Assembly: GCA_023920165.1 (NCBI GenBank)
Contig: CP089275.1
Location: forward strand, 1,798,001 to 1,862,000
DNA: 64,000 nt
Direction: 5' to 3'
Source of the DNA: Curvularia clavata
Taxonomy: Eukaryota
Shown here: positions 45,519 to 58,459 of the stretch, one piece after another
Numbering within the stretch: position 1 is the stretch's first letter
Layout: each line of letters opens with the position of its first letter
Notes under the pieces: model-generated
Seen by the model: only the letters and a program-made list of their open reading frames with translations
Database searches by the model: none
Told to the model about the DNA's origin: nothing
Position numbers and translations under genes: made by a program

Positions 45519-46154
45519 GTTGAGAGACTGGTGCCGCTCTAGCCCAGGAAAACTGCATCCTCAATCGTCGGATATTCGCCTTCTTAAAGGTTCCTCTAAC
45601 CCCATCTACCGCTCGTCTAAAATACCTACCACGCTGCACTCGGGGGGGGGCGCGAGTCGCGGAACTACTACCGATGAGTTAATGCATGTTCTGCCGATAG
45701 CTGCGGTAACAAGATTCTGGTGCGGAGAAACAGACGCTGAAAGGCGTGAGAAACGATGATAATGTTGCATATTCCTGTAGTTTGCATAAACTAGTCATGG
45801 CGTGGTTGTAAGTCTGGGTCGTAGACCCACACATCGGCAAGGGGGCGTTACACAGGTTGGGATACCTACTTCCCCTCTCGTCAATGTTGCTATGCTTCTT
45901 TGCGTCGTAATTTTCTGCGCTTAGAGTCTTTTACGCATACAAAAACTTCTTGTGTGTGATAATTTTGCACGTAATCTGTTCTTCGGTAACAACAGCAACC
46001 TTTTGTCCTGTTGAAGGTGTACGGCCCGCTGTAGATACCAACTTTGTGTGACCTGTGTACATCTCGCCTCGCTTTTGCCTCACGCTCGCTACTCTACATT
46101 CCCGACCCGCTAATGCGGCATAACTAGTTACTCTTTGAGGTGAGTCAGGTAGTA

Positions 46155-46428
46155 TACTCGCTTGCACAATCGGCTTCCGGTATCTATACTTCGCGCCCTT
46201 TCTCACAGCAGGGGGTCAGCCTTGCTTAGCGGGAGCTATACCTCATACGTATCAGATCAACTTAAGCCGCCTAGGTCCTGCTAGTATCTGTGATATAATA
46301 TGCCTTTATCGCTAGATGTTCACAAGGGTACGGGTCGGCAGTCCTCCCTGCTAGGGTCGCTGGGATAGTTTCTTAGTTCAATGATGTTGAAGGGGCGAAT
46401 CTTCAACGTGCACGTAGCTCTAGAAGTA
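46155..46428 (+). repeat. Left inverted repeat (~274 bp)
   Basis: 46168-46240 matches the reverse complement of 49849-49921 at 70/73 nt (3 transitions). 46383-46408 matches 49653-49678 at 26/26. The middle part aligns with indels. Confidence 0.9.
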
Positions 46429-46669
46429 GCCATCTTACTACTTGAATTTAGGACATGCTCGAAGCTTCTGTGTCAAATCAATGTAGTATACAGTTATGCT
46501 CATCCCCGCCCCTCTACAAGATAGAGAAAATTATAATATGTATGAGAGCAGTCTACGTTAAGTCAACATTGTATCCCAAACGTGACAGATCTACGCACCA
46601 CGGCTACACATATGACCAGCTAAACGCAGAGCTAGTCAAGGTTTGGGGTGTGCAGCCCTCAACCTTAGG

Positions 46670-49143
46670 TCACTCCACGTTAACGTCGGCGCCCTTGTCG
46701 AGCAATAGCTTCACTACTGTCTCGTGGCCTCTCCATGAAGCCGCCTGGAGCGCGTTGCCGTAGTGTCCACTTTGGGCGTTAACGTCGGCGCCTCTGTCGA
46801 GCAGTAGCTTTACTACTGCCTCGTGGCCTCTAACTGAAGCTGCCTGGAGCGCGTTGCCGTAGCGTCCACCCTGGACGTTGACGTCGGCGCCCTTGTCGAA
46901 CAGCAGCTTCACCATTCTTTGATGTCCATGTTCTGCTGCAAGATATAGGAGAGTCTGGCCCTCGCTATCTCTTCTTTCTAATATGGATGCTGTCTCTCCT
47001 ACTTGGTTTAGGAGCAGGGCTTCTAATATAATGGCTAACCCGAAACGTGCTGTAAGATGCAATCCTGTACTGTCCTTGGGATATTCCTGGCTATACCCTT
47101 GATATGTGTATTTTGGTCGTAACAGTGCCTGCGTAGCGCAAGAAACCAACTCTTTGCAGGAAAGAAATGAGCAGGCTAGCTCATATATATCACCTTCCAC
47201 TGTTAACGCATGCTCTCCCCAGTGCTTGGCAGTATAGTCTAAGAATTGGCTTGCTCGAAGCCTCTCTTCAAATTCTTCGTCAGAGGAGCATCTCCCAGTT
47301 TTAAATATGCTGAATGATAGGTACGTGAGACATTTCGAGGCTATATGTAGTTGAGCGCCTGGATTCTATGTATCTCGGATACGTTCAAAAAATTCTTGAG
47401 TGGTATAATGCACAAGACGGATAATAGCACTTTCTTGGTCAACGACGACCAGTCCAGCACACACGGATAATAGATCCTCAACATCAGGTATATTCTTAGG
47501 ATCGAGCTCTGCCTCGTCCGGCTCTACTGCTAGAGTACAGCAGATCTCTGTCGTGGTAAGCGGCCGTTTCGCATACGTGATTTATGACAGTACTCTTTTG
47601 GCTAGTTCGTAATCTCCGCTTAGCTGGTACTCTATGTGATAGATCGCCTCCTTGTATGCGTCATCAAGTGCGGCCGAGCCTTTGGAGAGCTTTGCTAGTG
47701 TTGACTTTATGTCTTTCGCCGTTCTCTTGTCTAGCAGCGAATCAGTGTAGAGGCAAGCAAGAAGAAACCTAAGAATGTGTAAGTCCGCGTTATATTACAA
47801 GTTGGCTAGAAGAAACATGCATGCCGTCTACCGCCTTTATGATCTTTTCCTGGATAAACTTCTGTAGTATACGGTCACGTTGAATACACTTTGGTAGTCG
47901 ATATATCTGGCCAGCCACGAATTGCTTCACATCCTCTTCACTAGCCTGTACTTCTAGCTTTAGCCCTTCCTTAAACCAGTCCACAATTTCTGGCATAAAA
48001 CGCGAGGTGGCCATTAGGCGAACGTCACGTCCCGCCTGAAGATCGCGGAGTTTGGCTAGAAACTGGCGCCGAGTGCCGTCGCTGTCTATACATTCATCTA
48101 GAGCATCGACCATAACATAGATAGTAGAGTAATGTGCAAGTACATCTCGGAGTGCGCTAAAGACCTTATCAGGCGAGGGCCTGGTTCCTCTGTTAGTATG
48201 CTGTTTGTGCAACCGTTCCATAGGATCCACTAGTGACAGTCGAGCCTGCACCAGCTGTTTAAGGATAGCTGCCAACATCCTCGAAGTATCCTGCTCCTCC
48301 TGAGCCTTGTAGTTGCAGTACACGTAAGCAACTCCAACTCTATGTAAGCTACTCTGCACTGATTTCAACAGGTAGTCGATCGCGATGGCGGCTACCATGG
48401 TCTTGCCAGCTCCCGGGATACCTAGGCAAAAGAGTGTTGCCTGGTATTCACTGAGCTACGTAGTCACCTGAGGCGCATCTAAAAATCATTGGCCTGTTCC
48501 CTCCTGTCTGCGATTTATAATGTCGGATTGTTGTGCGGGGTAGTCTGAGGGAGAGATTCATTCTAGAATCCTGCGGTGCTTCTCGGCGTCTTGATCTTGC
48601 CTGATCTCTTCTACACCCGACTGGATAACAGGTACGTGCGTCCGGGTGAAGTGAGTATCGTCTTTGATAGCTTGGGAGAGTTTGCTTTAGGATATAAGTA
48701 ATAACGCTTTACCATCCTAGTAGGGAAGCTTATAAGAGGTCCATCTGCAACGCGATCTCTATAAGCGACTTTAAACGCTCTATTCGATCTAATATACTAG
48801 CAATCTCCTCTTTCTTAAACTTCCACACGAGCGCTTTACCTACATTCTTCAACCGACCTCCATCTGTAATCTTAGTCTGCAGCGCTTCAAGCGCCTGCTT
48901 GAACTGGTCGAATGGGCCCTCAGAACCTGCGAGCTCTGCGATAGAGGTATACCACGGCTGGCTTAGATCTCCTGTCTGGACGTGATCTCGCAAGTCGCGA
49001 AGTAGAGCGGAAAGGTTCGATATCTCAGCCTCGCAGTGCGAGCGTTCTTTCGGGGCATCTCTAACGTCGCTTAGGTACTCGAGGACCTTGGCTGAGAGCT
49101 GGAGAACTGCGATGATGCTGGCTGCGACGCTGAGCGGATCCAT
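46670..49143 (-). pseudogene. Fungal NLR (STAND) pseudogene: HeLo-like/SesA-type N-terminal domain + NACHT + ankyrin repeats
   Basis: MDPLSVAASIIAVLQLS…LVWKFKKEEI N-terminal domain, Walker A GIPGAGKT (~48399-48422), Walker B VDALDEC, GMFLLA, RPLT…[10 protein letters not shown] and GNALQAAS ankyrins. Five Trp-position stops: 48558-60 TGA, 48486-88 TGA, 48456-58 TAG, 47582-84 TAA and 47366-68 TAG. The first intron donor is mutated (ATAAGC). Confidence 0.92.
46681..46914 (-). repeat. 99-bp-period ankyrin-coding tandem repeat (~2.4 near-identical units)
   Basis: Units start at 46681, 46780 and 46879 (t[a/g]acgtcggcgcc…) and encode GGRYGNALQAASVRGHEAVVKLLLDRGADVNAQ / SGHYGNALQAASWRGHETVVKLLLDKGADVN. 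Confidence 0.85.
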
Positions 49144-49629
49144 GTCATGTAATCGACATAGGCGGTAGATGCGTGTTGAAGGGAGGCGGAAATGGAGGAC
49201 GATGGCATTGTCTAGGCGGAGGAGCTGAAGCGGGAGCGGAGGGCTGAGGGATTGCGGCTGCAGCAAGGCTGAACAGCTCGTCGTGCTGCGCCGCACCTTA
49301 TCGACAACACCTTATTGTCATCACCTCAGCGCTTCTCCACTAATGAAGCACGTGAGGCCACAATATAGCTTTGGGGCTAACGCATTTCCAAAATCTGTAA
49401 GGTAATCTATCTATTGTGTCAGTCATCAGCGCCTCGATCGAGCACCTTAGAGTAACTCAGCTGGCTCGAAGCTACTCTAATGAGGTTAATTATCTACGAT
49501 TAAGGGTGCGGGTAAGGCTAAACTGCTAGGAGCAAGAACTTAGCCACAGGCAAAAAAGTGCACTAATCGCTGCGGCGTGAGCATTAGCCTCGTAATCGTC
49601 CTAGCCAAGTAACGGTAGATCGGCTATAA

Positions 49630-49934
49630 TACTTCTAGAACTACGAAGTTGGCGTTGAAGATTCGCCCCTTCAACATCGTTAAACTGAGGAGCTCCTCCA
49701 GCGACGCTAGTAGGGAGGATGGCTGACCCGGCTACAGGGTTGTGAGCTTTCCGGTTATTAAAGAGTATCATATTACGGAGTACAGATAACGACTCGCAGG
49801 AGCTGGGCGCCTTAGGCTGATCTACAGCGTATAAGGTAGTTAACTAGTTATAGCTCCCGCTAAGCGAGGCTGATCCCCTGCTGTGAGAAAGGGCGCGAAG
49901 TATAGATACTGGAAGCCGATTATGCGAGCGAGTG
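49630..49934 (-). repeat. Right inverted repeat (~305 bp)
   Basis: Reverse complement of 46155-46428, with a 12-nt insertion (gttaactagtta) at a TA near 49838-49850. Confidence 0.9.
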
Positions 49935-50522
49935 TAATTACCAAAGCACGTAGAGCTTTGTACGAATCCCATGTCTCCCTGGTTGTGTGACTTCAGATAG
50001 GTACCCATTGCTTCTTCAAAGTCGACTGGGCGGACCCTTTTCACGTCATTTGAGCACGTCATATCAATTTAGGCTCTAGAAAAGCCTTCTGTAGCAGGAA
50101 TTCTTAGTCTGTGTCGTTCCCCAGATCATCATGGGCCAGTGCTGCGGCACAGTCGACCGAGGTCAGGGATGCTACATCCTGAGTAACCATTCACAAGAGC
50201 CATCGCTACTATTTCTTCCACGTGATCCAAAAAATCAAATTCTCGAATGCATAGCACACATTCCATCGTTTGAAACCCCTGTGGCAATCCTGAAAATCAC
50301 GGAAATGCATCCCTTTTACAGCCCGACCGTGGCTATCGCAAGGCTGGTCTCCGTACTATGCTGTCGGGACATGGGCCCTAACCTGGTATTTGGGACAGTT
50401 TAAGATGCTATATGAATCAAGAGAGTGAATTCACCATGCTCTTTTGTTCTGCTGACCAGTTTTCTTGCATAGTTGTCCTTTCACGCTTCTTGTTCGTGCT
50501 TCTTTCCAGGGTTGCCTTCACC

Positions 50523-52137: not shown

Positions 52138-55100
52138 TTACTCCTTATCAACAATCAACACATCCACCGCCGCGTCCTCAGGATGATGTCTCTCCCTCAG
52201 CAGATTCTTCTTAGCCCGTTTGCTGCGGAAATGGCGCGTGACAAAATGACTTGGGATCGCGCTCTCGGACGCCATGAGACGGTACTGCTTGGCGGATGGG
52301 GGTGAAGAATCCGCCTTCATGCGAATACATCGTTTTTCGTTCCACATGTGGTAGGACTGGCCGTTTTGCAGAGTCCAAGGACCGGTGGTGGGATCGTCGT
52401 CTTCGTCTACCTCATTGCGGTATTGGATTACGGCTGTGCCAAGGCACTTTGGAGCCATGCGCCAGGATTGCTGTAGTGCCGCCTGGCAGGGATTGTCCTT
52501 GCATATTAAACATGTCGTTGTCATGTAGGCGAATGTGACGCCTTCTTCTGAGTCCGCGAGGACTTGCGCCCAAAGGTGTTTGTCTTGGCATGAGACTTTG
52601 ACGCCGCGGTGAAGATCACCTTCCTTTGGCCAAGCTATCTTGATATGTGTCCGCTCGCGGTTCAGGCCTGTGGGCTCGAGGATGCTCAGTATGCGGTGGA
52701 AGTATTTGAGCAGAGTAACGTAGGAGGCGGCGGAGGAGTGGCGCAGCGTGCGTAACCACTCGCTGACACCGTCTCTGCACAAACCGCTCACAATGCCGTC
52801 TTGGGTGTTCCAATCGTTCCAATCCGTTTCTCCCATGTGTGTGATGCAAAATGTGGGAATGAGATCGCTGAGGAGTTCCTGGAGCGAAATCCGGCGTGCG
52901 ACACCGGTACAGCAGCTCACTTGGACGCCGACATAGTATCCCAGGAACTCCATCAAACCGAAATCTCCCTGTTCAAGCTGATATTCCTTGAGCAATTTTG
53001 CGGGGATCTTGCTCCATACTTGGATAGCTTGAAGCGCAACATGGTCGGGCCCAACCTGCAATCCAAGTTGCCTTTGGTTCATAGCCCATCCCTCGGGTCG
53101 AACGGCTAGATGGACGAGGGGGCACGACAACCTCCATGTTTTCCAGTCAAACGAGCACTGTGTGAGATTCTTGGTGACGGGCGCCCCCACAATGACCCTG
53201 TTCCGGTAGTGGAAAGATCTCTCGGGGGATTTCTTTGGGCCGGGTCCAGCCTCCCAATGCAATCTACGACCAAACTCGTATTCATAATAGATTACGCCGC
53301 CTCCAACATTGATGGATTGCAGCCATGCTATCTCATCTTCTTTGTCCCCACAAGAAACTAGCTGTCCCGGTCCCCAAGTGTATAAGATGTCTTCTGGTGT
53401 CGCTGCTACATTATGCACATCCTGGTCGGCGAAGAGATCTTTGAGACCAAGTTGAGAAATTTTGTTAGGATCCGAAAACGCCTCTTGGATAACTGCTTGC
53501 GATCTCTCACTCTCGCTTGGAGGATCGCGTAACAAGCTGAAGGTTATTAGCGGTCCTTTGGTCATTTCGCTCAGGCAGGTGAGCTTGGTCAGGCGGACTG
53601 CAATGTGAGGACGGGGGAGCATTCCATCACCATTCAGCGTGTCTCTTCCTAGTAATACGGACCTCTCTTGCGGGTGGTTGGTGAAAACCGACTCTATAGG
53701 CCCTATGTGTCCTTGGCAGAATGACACAAGTCCGATGCATAGGCATTGTGCAGCTAAACAGCAGAAATGAAGGGGATCTTCAATCATGCATCGATCAAAG
53801 GACCACAGAGTGTCCTTAAGAAAGGGAGCTAGAACCGCGAAAGCCTCTAACAGCAGCGTCCCTCGACTGAGCATGTCAGAGGAGATGCACGATGGTAGTT
53901 TATCGAGTTCCTTGTATAGTTGGGCAGCCAAATCAATATCAACTCTCATAATTTCCACCTCGCGTATAGAGGCATTCGGTGTAGCAGAAGTGCGAGCGAT
54001 TGTAAGATATTCGAGACACAGACCAGCGCCTTGGAGAGCCGTTGCCGCTTCGCAGAAGCTTCTGAGAATGCGTTTTAATCGGGAAGCCAACTGAGACAGT
54101 CGTGTGGCTTCATCATCCTGGGAAGCGATTGAGTAGCTTATGTACGAGGTTGAAAAGTTGTCTTCAAAAATGACTTCACCGTTCCAATCCTGTAAAGACC
54201 GAGAGGTTGGTGCAACTCCGCCGAGACCGCAAAGCTGCTGAACTATCTTTTTGATGTCATGGCGCTTGGACAACCATGGAGAGTTCGAGAAGGCGTTTCT
54301 TACAGGATCCTTGGCTATCATCTCTCGATGTCGTAATATCCAATCTGCAGCAGTGTCCTTGGAAATCAGTGCCAGACGCTGTGCATTCTGAGCCGGCAGA
54401 TCTTGGGGATCACAGTAGATCCACGGCGCGTCATTTTCCTCCTCAAGGAGAAGCTGTGAAATATCGTACCAGCTGTAGCCTACGTCGGCGAGCTCGTTGA
54501 GCCACTCGTAGTCGTCTCGAGCTACCTTCTCAAATTCGATTTCCAGCAGCATTCGTACGGTACGAGAATCACGACGCTGCAACGCTTCGGTTAGGTGTGC
54601 TGGCGTCTTTTCTGGCTTTTCGAACTTACCAAAGTCTACTTGCCTGGGAATCAAAGCGGAAGGCAATGTAAGCTCCGGCGCTTGCGTCAGGTCTCCTGGT
54701 GTCTTGTCTGGTATCTTGACCCTGCCTAATTCCACTTGCCTTTGAATCGCGCCAGACGAACCAAACATGGGTTCCAACCTTACTCCGCCAAAACTCCACC
54801 CATCAACAGCGGTTTCCTTCTCGTATCTCTTACTGACCAAGAAACCCAACGCGCCATCCAGACCCACACTGACCTCTGTATCGCCCTGGATTTCCACCCA
54901 CCCTTTCCCTTTGAACTCCTCGTATCGACGACTCCCGACACGCACTCTGACAGCGTCGGGATGCAGCAGCACAGAGGCGACGTCTGGTGTAATTTTGACG
55001 TCGACATAGCGTGTCGTAAACGTCTGGTAGTCAAACGGTTTACCTACGCTAAAGACAACGTCGCGGGGCGGAGAAAAAGCCGAGTCATGGAAAGCGACAA

Positions 55101-56754
55101 TGAAAGAGACTCTGTATTTGCCCTGTGGAATGCCTGTTTTGATACTTCGCAAGCAAATATTTTCGGCGGATACACATTGGTAGACAGCGGCTTCTTCACG
55201 GCGGCCGTCGTGATCTAGGTCAGCTGCTACGGGGTAGATTTTGCGGAGGCGGCCGGTCTCATCCATAGCGAGTCCCCCTTCGCCAGTTGGCGAGGACCTA
55301 GTACGGAAATGTTGTGGTGTTGTGAGACCAACACCCATGGGCAAGCCACTTTTGAAATCTACGTGTACGAGCTTGAAAGAGTCGCCGAGCTGGCGGCTTC
55401 CTGACGTGTCAACAGCAAATTCGGTGGCGCCGATTTCGAACTTGGGTGGGAGAGCAGAGAGATTTGCCATGAGCTCGGCAAAGGCCCTTGCTTTGCGGAT
55501 TTGCAGGCTGTCTGTCATGTAGAGTTCAGTCAGGCTGGCCATCTCGTCTTCCTTCATCCATTGCTCTAGACTGACATCGGCGAGGCCGCGGTCGACGTCG
55601 AAGCGGAAGTACTTTGTATCTGAATTAGTGTACATACGCCTCATTTCGTTGTCCACGCGTGCTGTGCTAGTAGCCATGCCGGTAAGTGCACTGGCAATAG
55701 AAAGGTCAGTCCCGAGGCCAAACGGTAGCCATGAGGCTATCTTCTTAACACTAGGAATACTCTGCAGACCTGTTCCGACGGAGAGAATGACACCTATGGA
55801 TCGATCTTCCCACAATGCTTTGGCCGCATAGTCGACCTCTGCACAAGGGTTGTTGAAGCCAACGCCACCGTCTAGGTATGTGACTTTGGGTGTACCAAAC
55901 TGCATTTCTTCAAAAAATGTCGGTGCTGCCGACGTGGCTCGCAACGCCTCCCAAATGCGAGTAGTCCGGTCATTTGGGTCATAGGTAGATAGGACCCTGG
56001 GAAGCCCTAATGCATTCTTGAGTGAAGTGAGGACAAGGCCGCGACAGCCTTTTTTATCTGCTTTTTGGTGGACCGATGTTCGTTTGTGAGCTTTCCAGGT
56101 AGATTTTCGCGTGGGCTGCTTTGGATTGAATGGACTAGAGCTGTAGAGGGTCGACCCAGGCTTTGTATCACCAGGAGTCCCTGATTCTAATGAGGCCAGC
56201 GAGTTTTTCATGGTCGCCAACGGGCTTTCGGTAAGTGTCAACTTGGGCGCGGCATCTGCCCAGATGCTGTCCCCAGGCAGGTCGTCTTCTATCTCCTCGA
56301 ACAGTTCCTCATCCCACATGAGCTCGTCGGCATCGAAGCCTAGATCTGTAAGAGCACTTTTGATGGCGTTTGCTAGTACCGCACCGGAAAATCGGGTGGC
56401 TCCCGTGGGTATTTTCATGCCAAAAGCATTGATTGATCGGTCATGCTTGAAGATCTGCTCAGCCAGCTTGCAGTAAACAGCTATGCATTGCTTGCAGTCG
56501 AGTCTCAACCGCGAAAGCATAATAGCGATGATACCTCCGGTCGATGTACCGCCAATGAGATCGAAATAATCACATGGCTTGAGTGGCTCATAATCGTTGG
56601 TGGCTCTTCTCCCTAGTCTCTTTTCTTCCAAGGCAATGTTTTCCATCAGCGTGTCGAGAACAAGAAGTGACGACAACCCACGCACGCCTCCTCCGTCGAG
56701 GGACAGCAACCGCAGCGGTGCATTTGGGTTTCTCTCAGCGTTTGAGAGGTCCAT
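52138..56754 (-). CDS. 1538-aa intronless protein: patatin-like phospholipase + PP2-lectin-like domain + large uncharacterised C-terminal domain
   Basis: LLSLDGGGVRG, FDLIGGTSTGG (nucleophile Ser), WEALRATSAAPTFF and YLDGGVGFNNP (catalytic Asp) are all intact. The middle domain runs GKYRVSF…GWVEIQG…GWSFGGVRLEP. The C-terminal part has LCGLGG, TWGPG, GVQVSCCTGVARRISL and WAQVLADSE…TFAY. Confidence 0.88.
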   Translation of the reverse strand: MDLSNAERNPNAPLRLLSLDGGGVRGLSSLLVLDTLMENIALEEKRLGRRATNDYEPLKPCDYFDLIGGTSTGGIIAIMLSRLRLDCKQCIAVYCKLAEQIFKHDRSINAFGMKIPTGATRFSGAVLANAIKSALTDLGFDADELMWDEELFEEIEDDLPGDSIWADAAPKLTLTESPLATMKNSLASLESGTPGDTKPGSTLYSSSPFNPKQPTRKSTWKAHKRTSVHQKADKKGCRGLVLTSLKNALGLPRVLSTYDPNDRTTRIWEALRATSAAPTFFEEMQFGTPKVTYLDGGVGFNNPCAEVDYAAKALWEDRSIGVILSVGTGLQSIPSVKKIASWLPFGLGTDLSIASALTGMATSTARVDNEMRRMYTNSDTKYFRFDVDRGLADVSLEQWMKEDEMASLTELYMTDSLQIRKARAFAELMANLSALPPKFEIGATEFAVDTSGSRQLGDSFKLVHVDFKSGLPMGVGLTTPQHFRTRSSPTGEGGLAMDETGRLRKIYPVAADLDHDGRREEAAVYQCVSAENICLRSIKTGIPQGKYRVSFIVAFHDSAFSPPRDVVFSVGKPFDYQTFTTRYVDVKITPDVASVLLHPDAVRVRVGSRRYEEFKGKGWVEIQGDTEVSVGLDGALGFLVSKRYEKETAVDGWSFGGVRLEPMFGSSGAIQRQVELGRVKIPDKTPGDLTQAPELTLPSALIPRQVDFGKFEKPEKTPAHLTEALQRRDSRTVRMLLEIEFEKVARDDYEWLNELADVGYSWYDISQLLLEEENDAPWIYCDPQDLPAQNAQRLALISKDTAADWILRHREMIAKDPVRNAFSNSPWLSKRHDIKKIVQQLCGLGGVAPTSRSLQDWNGEVIFEDNFSTSYISYSIASQDDEATRLSQLASRLKRILRSFCEAATALQGAGLCLEYLTIARTSATPNASIREVEIMRVDIDLAAQLYKELDKLPSCISSDMLSRGTLLLEAFAVLAPFLKDTLWSFDRCMIEDPLHFCCLAAQCLCIGLVSFCQGHIGPIESVFTNHPQERSVLLGRDTLNGDGMLPRPHIAVRLTKLTCLSEMTKGPLITFSLLRDPPSESERSQAVIQEAFSDPNKISQLGLKDLFADQDVHNVAATPEDILYTWGPGQLVSCGDKEDEIAWLQSINVGGGVIYYEYEFGRRLHWEAGPGPKKSPERSFHYRNRVIVGAPVTKNLTQCSFDWKTWRLSCPLVHLAVRPEGWAMNQRQLGLQVGPDHVALQAIQVWSKIPAKLLKEYQLEQGDFGLMEFLGYYVGVQVSCCTGVARRISLQELLSDLIPTFCITHMGETDWNDWNTQDGIVSGLCRDGVSEWLRTLRHSSAASYVTLLKYFHRILSILEPTGLNRERTHIKIAWPKEGDLHRGVKVSCQDKHLWAQVLADSEEGVTFAYMTTTCLICKDNPCQAALQQSWRMAPKCLGTAVIQYRNEVDEDDDPTTGPWTLQNGQSYHMWNEKRCIRMKADSSPPSAKQYRLMASESAIPSHFVTRHFRSKRAKKNLLRERHHPEDAAVDVLIVDKE

Positions 56755-58459
56755 GGTTGAGGTTTGCCTGAGTGGGCAGGCAATCCTCTTTTCCGTATTT
56801 GATCTTTGGCTATACAACGCGGAAGCCTCGTGGGGTTTGGATAAGTTTTAACGAAAGTTTTGAATATTGGGAATCGTGCCGAGTACAGTTGAGCGTAATC
56901 TCACAAACAGCAGCGTGTTAACAGAGTGTACTCTGTAGCTGCCTTATGTATGCTTATTACCGGCACCGGGAGGCCTCCTCGACGTGGCTGTGCTGATGGT
57001 GACGCGATGAGTCAGGTGGCCGAGTGGCCTGTAGATCGGTGCTGCCAGCAAGGCTGCACTATTGTGTCGAATGGCGATCTGGGACAGGAGGTCATCGTCG
57101 CACATGTAGGGTAGGAAGGTATCATATTATATGTTGAGCAGCAAATGTGGCGGAGCTGGTGGAGCTGATACAGCTGCCTAGCCACGTTCAGGCGGCTGTT
57201 ACTGAAATGGGCGAAGAAAACTGCCTCCCCCACAATAGTGCAGCCACCCCTCAATCACACCTTCCCGTTCTTAGAGACCCGAGGCAGACAGGAACATTTT
57301 TATCTCAAATTCACACTATCTACCACAAGATTCAATAGATGCTGCCATCTTGAATGTAATCCAAGCCGTTAATAGGGGGATTTGTATCCAGCCATTGTAC
57401 GGTACACCAGGAGAGCCTCTTCCCTATACTAGTCCACTATATTTAACTCTGCCTTCGTAAGCTTCCAATATCGCTAGAGTTACTCTCTATTGATTCGTGT
57501 CGTGAACCATACAGACCATTTACTACTTTACTTTTAGGACACCCACTCAGCCCCATAACCCCAGCACAGATGTGCCGTGTTACCGAAGATGGGAGCTTGG
57601 GGGCCAACTTCGTGCTGATCCTTCAAACGCAACTAGTCATGTCCACATAGTAACACCGGAAACAAGGCAAAATGCACAAGCAGAATAATATCCAGTATGT
57701 CATTAACAACTACCCGTCACTCCTCGTACCAGTGAGTGTGCGTCGAGAAAGAAAAAAAATTCAACAATTAAAACAGTCGAGTTGCGACATGACAACGTGT
57801 CGGTGTGTGGTTGCTTGGACCAATCACCAGTGCTGCACGATACAGGTGGGACACGTAGAGTGGTCAGCAGACAGAGAAGGGTGGAGGGGGGCTGATGTAA
57901 GAGGTGTGTGTGCCGGAACGCCGAGCTGAGGCTCTGCGGGTTCGCGCAACGCACGGTGATGTTATTGATGTAATACATATGAAACGTCCGATCAAGGTAT
58001 GTAAGTAAAGTATGTAAGTAGTGTAGAAACAAAACGAAACGAAACAACAAAGGCGCGCTGAGCTGAGGCCTCGTGTGAGCTGGATTAAATTACATGTTTG
58101 TATCGCGTACTGATGCGTTTAGAGGGGGGAAAAACCGGCGACTATATGCAAAAACCAGGTGTGCATAAAACTCAATAATGCTGAATATTCAAAACCCTGG
58201 GTATTATAATCGAATGCTCTGTGTAACGCCGTACGTGTTCCCCCCCAATATCGGGTCGTTAGTCATGATAAGTCGTAAGTCGTTTTCGTTAAGGTCGCTC
58301 TGCAGGCTGCATGTCCTGCAAGTCATTATCTCTGAGGGAGATCAGCGGCTGTGACGGAGAAGGAGTGTAGCGGAAAACTGACATCCATCCATCTCGTCCA
58401 GTGTGCTGTGGGGTCGTGCAATAACATTCTTGGACCCTGGCGACAAGAGTGGAGTTGAG

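Follow-up and report, generated by a model that had tools for sequence, protein, structure and literature searches.

The probable element at 46153-49936

The window, the whole 64,000-nucleotide stretch of Curvularia clavata DNA analyzed here (contig CP089275.1; C2:1798001-1862000 in a 32.4-Mb, 8-contig genome), contains at 46153-49936 a single NOD-like receptor (NLR) gene lying between two long inverted arms. The introns, gene content, and mutation pattern would suit a filamentous ascomycete. From the sequence alone, it had been predicted that this unit is a mobile cassette that moves NLR genes. The finding of paired ends around other NLR genes, and of related cassettes at unrelated sites, supports this idea, and 46153-49936 is probably an old cut-and-paste element, non-autonomous and belonging to a family that is widespread in fungi. 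The features are as follows (C1-C8 denote contigs; L numbers, G001, and X numbers are labels for loci, a bin, and runs, respectively).

46153..46154, + strand: TA, presumed target-site duplication (left); conservation among family ends begins here, with none outside and no longer direct repeat
46155..46428, + strand: left inverted arm, from the arm alignment
46670..47768, - strand: NLR exon 3, with ankyrin repeats (Pfam Ank/Ank_2) and a winged-helix region recognized from the L084 alignment; stops at 47584 and 47368
46677-46927, - strand: three ankyrin units of 99 nt within exon 3
47769..47820, - strand: intron 2, 52 nt (edges +/- a few bases); a 52-nt gap in the L084 copy, AG end
47821..48684, - strand: NLR exon 2, NACHT (NPHP3_N, 48000-48500); stops at 48560, 48488, and 48458
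48685..48733, - strand: intron 1, 49 nt (edges +/- a few bases); a 49-nt gap in the L084 copy, starting with AT, not GT
48734..49143, - strand: NLR exon 1, SesA/HeLo-like N-terminal domain; 90% identity to L084
49630..49934, - strand: right inverted arm, from the arm alignment
49935..49936, + strand: TA, presumed target-site duplication (right), as at other family ends; no longer direct repeat

The arms described earlier as bracketing exactly one gene (~274 and ~305 bp) are real. With their TA included, they measure 276 bp (46153-46428) and 307 bp (49630-49936) and align in inverted orientation at 74.3% identity over 307 columns (E = 1e-53), with 92% identity across the outer 91 nt. An inner block is exact at 26 of 26 positions (46383 and 49678), as had been stated, whereas the outer match of 70/73 is obtained only when counting starts at 46168; from the terminus it is 67/73 (82/88 when extended). 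Within the first 88 nt, the six mismatches are without exception C/T or G/A transitions, and base 46155 is C in four of four related runs, in agreement with the proposal of a CACTCGC terminus altered by one C>T change. The left arm consists of a terminal ~26 bp found family-wide and then ~250 bp specific to a subfamily, and the terminus of the right arm is exactly where homology to both L084 and an element on C7 stops. A search allowing up to nine mismatches found no inner terminus in either arm; each has one outward-facing terminus and thus lacks the two termini of its own expected of a miniature inverted-repeat transposable element (MITE). It had been stated that no 8-9-bp target-site duplication (TSD) and no transposase are visible; indeed, no direct repeat was found outside the TA, and no transposase lies within the element.

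The gene, with its ATG at 49143, has a weak SesA/HeLo-like N-terminus (PF17111, PigL_N/HeLo-like, E = 4e-4; PF17107, SesA, E = 5e-4; both under the Pfam cut-offs), followed by NACHT (NPHP3_N, E = 7e-27) and ankyrin repeats (Ank, E = 1e-23), that is, the combination of NACHT and C-terminal repeats that defines a fungal NLR. It is a pseudogene. The frame is broken by five in-frame stops, three of which are TGG in the listed rows of related runs; frameshifts were considered and rejected, as the breaks correspond to the two introns, seen as gaps in L084. Relative to L084, there are 139 C>T/G>A changes in the window copy vs 54 in reverse, with 57 in CpA/TpG, a bias that resembles repeat-induced point mutation (RIP). 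Such a bias would suggest that a second copy once existed.

The family end and its members in this genome

The conserved end of the family is ~26-28 bp, TA followed by CA(C/G)TCGCTTGCA(C/A)AATCGGCTTCC. Arms range in length between ~25 bp and ~300 bp and have the outer 26-28 bp in common; these outer ~28 bp constitute the family end, and the 300-bp arm is confined to one subfamily. BLAST with the window arms detected one further pair only, on C7. The remaining pairs were found with mismatch-tolerant end patterns, for which reversed-pattern controls gave 0 hits with either strict pattern and 14 with the loose one. Among the well-matching ends in this genome, 14 form seven outward-facing pairs, that of the window included. 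A NACHT NLR is present inside six of the seven, the six that were read, as was expected if copies occur as inverted pairs around NLR cargo, and this pairing does not fit a solo MITE scattered in random orientation. The five NACHT-holding pairs beyond the window span 3.8-18 kb.

C2:5220914-5224770, pair C2b: NACHT-ankyrin (NACHT-ANK), one stop
C4:868954-877444, pair C4: PNP_UDP-NACHT-ANK
C6:2169758-2173599, pair C6: NACHT-ANK, 859-aa frame
C1:5304713-5310397, pair C1: PNP_UDP-NACHT-ANK
C7:2821249-2839331, pair C7: NACHT and 76 copies of a 72-bp repeat
C7:1243475-1245392, second C7 pair, 1.9 kb (as long as a simple Tc1 element): no NACHT, HET, or DDE_3 match
C5:3198137, single end: faces ankyrins and NACHT

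The cargo genes of C1, C4, and C6 are uninterrupted. Given 67 NPHP3_N matches genome-wide, a lower bound, the chance that six random intervals of equal lengths would all hold one is 4e-12, or 1e-8 if the window and C7 are left out. Across pairs the NACHT regions are only 21-27% identical, with the exception of C6 and C7 (76%), and the interiors show no DNA alignment outside the ankyrin units and C6/C7. With so few copies and such unrelated interiors, elements of this family would escape repeat annotation. An end at C5:1638207 and most two-mismatch hits of the loose pattern were set aside as chance-level.

The C7 pair has several features of its own. The C-terminal region of its NLR (L006:1012-6541; C7:2822011-2827540) contains 76.6 copies of the 72-bp (24-aa) unit at 83% identity, an array that is heavily RIP-like and stop-rich. 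The 3' end of this NLR (L006:6483-6939, 686-1047) is duplicated in inverted orientation at L007:6347-7112, close to the opposite end of the element, and the duplicate includes about one repeat unit. A short inverted motif that precedes the NLR (L006:8195-8364) is found again upstream of a HET gene, at L069:1751-1783, and at L007:4673-5293 lies a small cysteine-rich gene whose product is apparently secreted and looks hydrophobin-like by eye, with no Pfam match.

Probable mobility and insertion site

Locus L084 is 86% identical to the window cassette across 2,593 bp, its match to the right arm runs as far as the arm's final base, and the 844-bp L084 flank has no match within the window. This flank is a conserved gene interrupted inside a Val codon, between G and TA. 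In 31 of 31 homologues inspected (432 were found), V or I is present at this position and the protein runs 8-198 residues farther. Similarly, L069 matches the left arm and the ankyrin end at 77%, L071 matches C4, and L079 matches C6, each with an unrelated flank. By alignment, near-identical cassettes are located at unrelated sites. Neither intron is present in the NLR of L084 (L084:1061-3532), and where an intron probably lay in the interrupted flank gene, four bases are left over; L084 would be either a read-through contig derived from RNA or a processed copy.

All 48 listed ends begin with TA (27 forced by the pattern, 21 unforced), a count that omits damaged or abutted ends without a TA start (the right end of L093, L098 at 5198/5202, and G001:C17:934); the ten outer bases are not conserved. 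Direct repeats outside the TA amount to 0-1 nt in 14 pairs and 3 nt at C7, and a 3-bp TSD, once read from C7, was dropped since it is not repeated in the 14 others. The family also includes MITEs of 266-274 bp (L064 and L083), and in L064, two of ~272 bp abut with a single TA in common, which is expected if TA is the target rather than part of the end. Insertion at TA is strongly, though indirectly, supported by the sequence comparisons. For the proposed TA duplication, the observations are the TA at all listed ends, the TA common to the abutting MITEs, and the gene cut between G and TA; an empty allele was not found in four related runs. Reading frames over the reconstructed empty sites of 14 pairs gave nothing convincing, and flanks resembling Tc1 excision footprints beside a few ends, noticed post hoc, were not used. 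The related runs contain the repeats together with the gene, in contrast to the possibility that relatives keep the NLR at this locus without them.

Members outside this genome and their cargo

An exact degenerate pattern located the family end in 30 metagenome loci, and three loci were found in prokaryote bins; in viral contigs, two end patterns detected no family end. Within the ends, immune domains (Pfam NACHT, HET, ankyrin, TPR, patatin, and HeLo-like, tallied by hand) are present in 11 of 16 informative metagenome loci vs 2 of 13 outside (Fisher p = 0.008). For this count, the duplicates L063, L065, L068, L082, and L090 were dropped, L087 was merged with L091, two MITE loci and six with <1.3 kb inside were set aside, and the outside count needed at least 1.3 kb. 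The cargo classes comprise NACHT-ANK, NACHT-WD40, patatin-TPR, HET-ANK, and kinase genes, the last in the interior of L074; L091 is HET-like by eye only. The family ranges from ~270-bp MITEs to units of 3-18 kb, mostly with one whole NLR or HET-type gene each.

Bin G001 contains 10 family ends, with three NLR-filled pairs in fungal-looking contigs. Its complete or abutted pairs hold a SesA-NACHT-WD40 gene (L093), a HeLo-like-NACHT-ANK gene (L094), and TPR genes (L098); there is no NLR across the 18 kb of L097. The bin (L093, L094, L096-L098) is labelled bacterial, yet many of its contigs look fungal. At L098:5180-5225, two ends meet back to back, with the loss of a few terminal bases, the pattern of an end-to-end junction or of tandem insertion, and NLR-type TPR genes are present on both sides of the abutting ends. 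In a prokaryote bin, L092:4100-7050 carries a fungal-type NACHT-ankyrin fragment and one end amid high-GC, bacterial-looking genes; L092 is most likely a chimeric contig, with transfer as the alternative.

A candidate transposase

The C7 element carries an intact 325-aa DD34E open reading frame (ORF), with the spacing counted by hand, that is divergent from its NLR. This protein has 1,243 relatives at E <= 1e-20, among them Pezizomycotina entries named Tc1-like transposase. The C6 element retains a 5' remnant of the DD34E gene, the promoter region, and the NLR start, arranged as in C7 and at 69-77% identity, and apart from the C7 gene and the C6 remnant the genome contains no close copy. The C7 DD34E may be the driver of the family, although this assignment is a tentative one. 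As to whether any pair flanks a DDE transposase, C7 encloses one and C6 a remnant of it, but the gene may be nested. A DD34E remnant in G001 was rejected as a family member; the nearest end is 21 kb off across ordinary genes, and an adjoining end with nine mismatches is chance-level.

Two other coding regions are present in C7. A nested Tc1-like element (L007:2298-3760), bounded by perfect 52-bp ends, contains an intact 436-aa ORF, with equal-scoring copies of the element at C2:2314 and C6:1052539. At L007:293-1768 lies a 491-aa ORF with no Pfam match, convergent with the DD34E gene and 126 bp from the DD34E stop; viral contigs yielded no relative of it and one weak, irrelevant transposase match.

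A model for the family and its alternatives

In the proposed mechanism, the ends, which occur as outward-facing pairs around many different immune genes, with like cassettes at unrelated sites, would delimit elements that insert at TA and are moved by a Tc1/mariner transposase supplied in trans, the best candidate being the Ant1-like DD34E within the C7 pair. Cargo would have been captured repeatedly from host NLR lineages, for example by gap repair after excision, and the immune cargo would be what selection kept. Duplication would then have laid the window copy open to RIP, killing its NLR. By analogy, the family may work like Pack-TIR elements (TIR, terminal inverted repeat).

Several observations weigh against this model or qualify it. 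The window copy is old and dead, and a genome search found that no within-genome duplicate of it remains. The empty site with a single TA that the original prediction looked for in relatives did not appear: no joint across the element was seen in any of the four related runs compared, out of 18 listed, where holes in runs X3, X6, and X8 carry no information. In run X5, one contig covers all 10 kb with the element present, at ~96% identity and 409 differences, which argues against recent activity and places the window insertion before this ~4% divergence. The 1.9-kb pair on C7 (C7:1243475-1245392) is without a match to the three domains listed for it above, and no Pfam immune domain is found inside 5 of the 16 informative loci (L067, L074, L080, L085, and L091) or in G001:C153. 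Furthermore, the search pattern was derived from NLR-bearing copies; other-cargo subfamilies may consequently be under-sampled and the immune bias overstated, and metagenome contigs can be misjoined through repeats. Finally, DD34E has no tblastn match in the 30 metagenome loci or the 3 loci from metagenome-assembled genomes, while 80 DDE_3 matches are present in this genome and C7 is a nest that includes long terminal repeat-like pieces and a second Tc1-like element; DD34E may therefore be a passenger.

This last point leads to a substantial possibility, namely that the cargo family is the same and its enzyme is another one (another Tc1, pogo/Fot, or a CMC-type enzyme with CAC ends), with the C7 gene as a nested passenger. 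DD34E is absent from seven of seven complete cargo pairs outside this genome (by tblastn for six, with L098 examined separately), CAC follows TA at most ends, a pogo-like fragment lies within the L080 end (HTH_Tnp_Tc5, E = 0.04), and there is a possible separate end ~110 bp past the DD34E stop codon. However, a left partner for that end was not found, the sole close genome copy of DD34E and its remnant both sit within pairs with a similar promoter and NLR 5' region, and the TA target and the CAGT variant ends fit Tc1. It is unlikely that one ancient NLR-bearing element diversified its cargo by co-divergence, with no repeated capture. Subfamily ends do accompany cargo type in some cases (C6 with L079; the window with L084 and L069), but the cargo spans all of the classes given above, C7 has window-type arms around a C6-type NLR, and the window NACHT has unbounded NLRs, rather than other bounded ones, as its nearer neighbors. 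A NACHT tree of 14 rows places the window and L084 in one group (95/98) with two NLRs that lack a recognizable end in the DNA examined; the first is a paralogue from this genome (60-68%), and the second lies in L070. Branches are long and the deeper forks unsure. The tree and the range of cargo types favor repeated capture, with decay of ends as the alternative.

It is very improbable that these structures arose from separate MITE or solo insertions building up in NLR/HET-rich regions, with pairs that are coincidental or composite around resident genes. MITEs of this size with these ends do exist, solo ends occur (L067, G001:C153), and NLR/HET genes are also found outside certain ends (L069, L070, and L094). 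Nevertheless, each window arm has a single terminus, homology between cassettes stops at the terminus, and the regular pairing of the 14 ends in this genome largely refutes the idea. It is scarcely credible that the 28-bp motif is a cis-element or recombination site flanking immune genes instead of a transposon end: its core is short and highly conserved, the interiors are unrelated, and a transposase is mostly absent, but the motif interrupts conserved coding sequence at TA, it bounds empty ~270-bp MITEs, and only ~7 of the 67 NPHP3_N matches (about a tenth) lie in or beside it.

Comparison with known systems

TA targets together with CAGT-type ends are traits of Tc1/mariner elements, and by the indirect TSD evidence the family is likely to belong to this group. 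The C7 protein is Ant1-like (from the Aspergillus Tc1/mariner element). Host sequence lies inside Ant1, which is not known to have an immune cargo bias. Pack-MULEs generate TSDs of 9-11 bp and hAT elements TSDs of 8 bp, and neither length is found here in any of the pairs, C7 included. The CACTA/CMC group, with CACT(A/G) termini and a 3-bp TSD, does not fit either; mostly CACTC or CAGTC follows the TA, and a 3-bp repeat outside it is present in 1 of 15 pairs, a chance level.

In the literature, an Ant1-like ORF is reported near duplicated amylase genes of A. oryzae (PMC3111232), and the Tc1-like impala/mimp system of Fusarium combines TIRs of ~27 bp with non-coding MITEs that are mobilised in trans (PMC3599309). 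In a by-eye, partial, and unscored comparison, the mimp end pattern (PMC6131394) has CAGT and then GCAA, like the CAGT variant here. However, mimps are 200-220 bp and lie beside genes, whereas the ends of the present family enclose whole NLR/HET genes. Pack-MULEs carry mostly gene fragments (PMC11162782); the present family resembles them and Pack-TIRs as non-autonomous TIR elements with host cargo, but differs in having whole genes, TA only, and one functional class. ToxhAT is a 14-kb fungal TIR transposon that moves a host gene (PMC6737239, PMC12506042); it is of hAT type, with one cargo gene in one element, in contrast to the interchangeable immune cargos seen here. Starships have NLRs (SesA-NACHT-Ank and HET-NACHT) and patatins as conserved cargo (PMC9156397). 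They span tens to hundreds of kb and have a DUF3435 tyrosine-recombinase captain, whereas the present cargo units of about 2-18 kb are bounded by TA and TIRs; there was no Pfam match to DUF3435 among the ORFs scanned, and the pairs measure 0.27-18 kb.

Fungal NLRs turn over rapidly and sometimes appear at new positions, and Starships are the carriers named in this connection. A study of Podospora NLRs inferred the involvement of transposable elements with the element unnamed (PMC13449251), and the accessible part of a survey in Sordariales mentions no such element (PMC12258605). The literature search, whose scope left out subscription papers, supplements, and Repbase/Dfam, found no description of the family or its end sequence, although a catalogue entry for the end, as a MITE or a derivative of mariner, may exist already. 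The family would represent a small, sharply bounded vehicle and a concrete route by which fungi move and reshuffle NLR genes, and given its searchable end, NLR movement can be tested in any set of fungal assemblies. A broader reading, a fair possibility though somewhat less likely than not, is a pan-Pezizomycotina, Tc1-type immune cassette that repeatedly packages single intact NLR, HET, and related cell-death genes within a single conserved end pair and moves them within genomes and between species. If so, a sizeable part of NLR turnover would be due to it, it could be located anywhere by the 28-bp motif, and it would parallel the bacterial mobile elements that carry defence systems.

Neighboring genes in the window

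The element is flanked on one side by a GMC oxidoreductase gene, and a patatin gene lies farther to the right. At 52138-56847, 2.2 kb off the element, a 1,569-aa open frame combines an N-terminal patatin domain with a long stretch that has no Pfam match.

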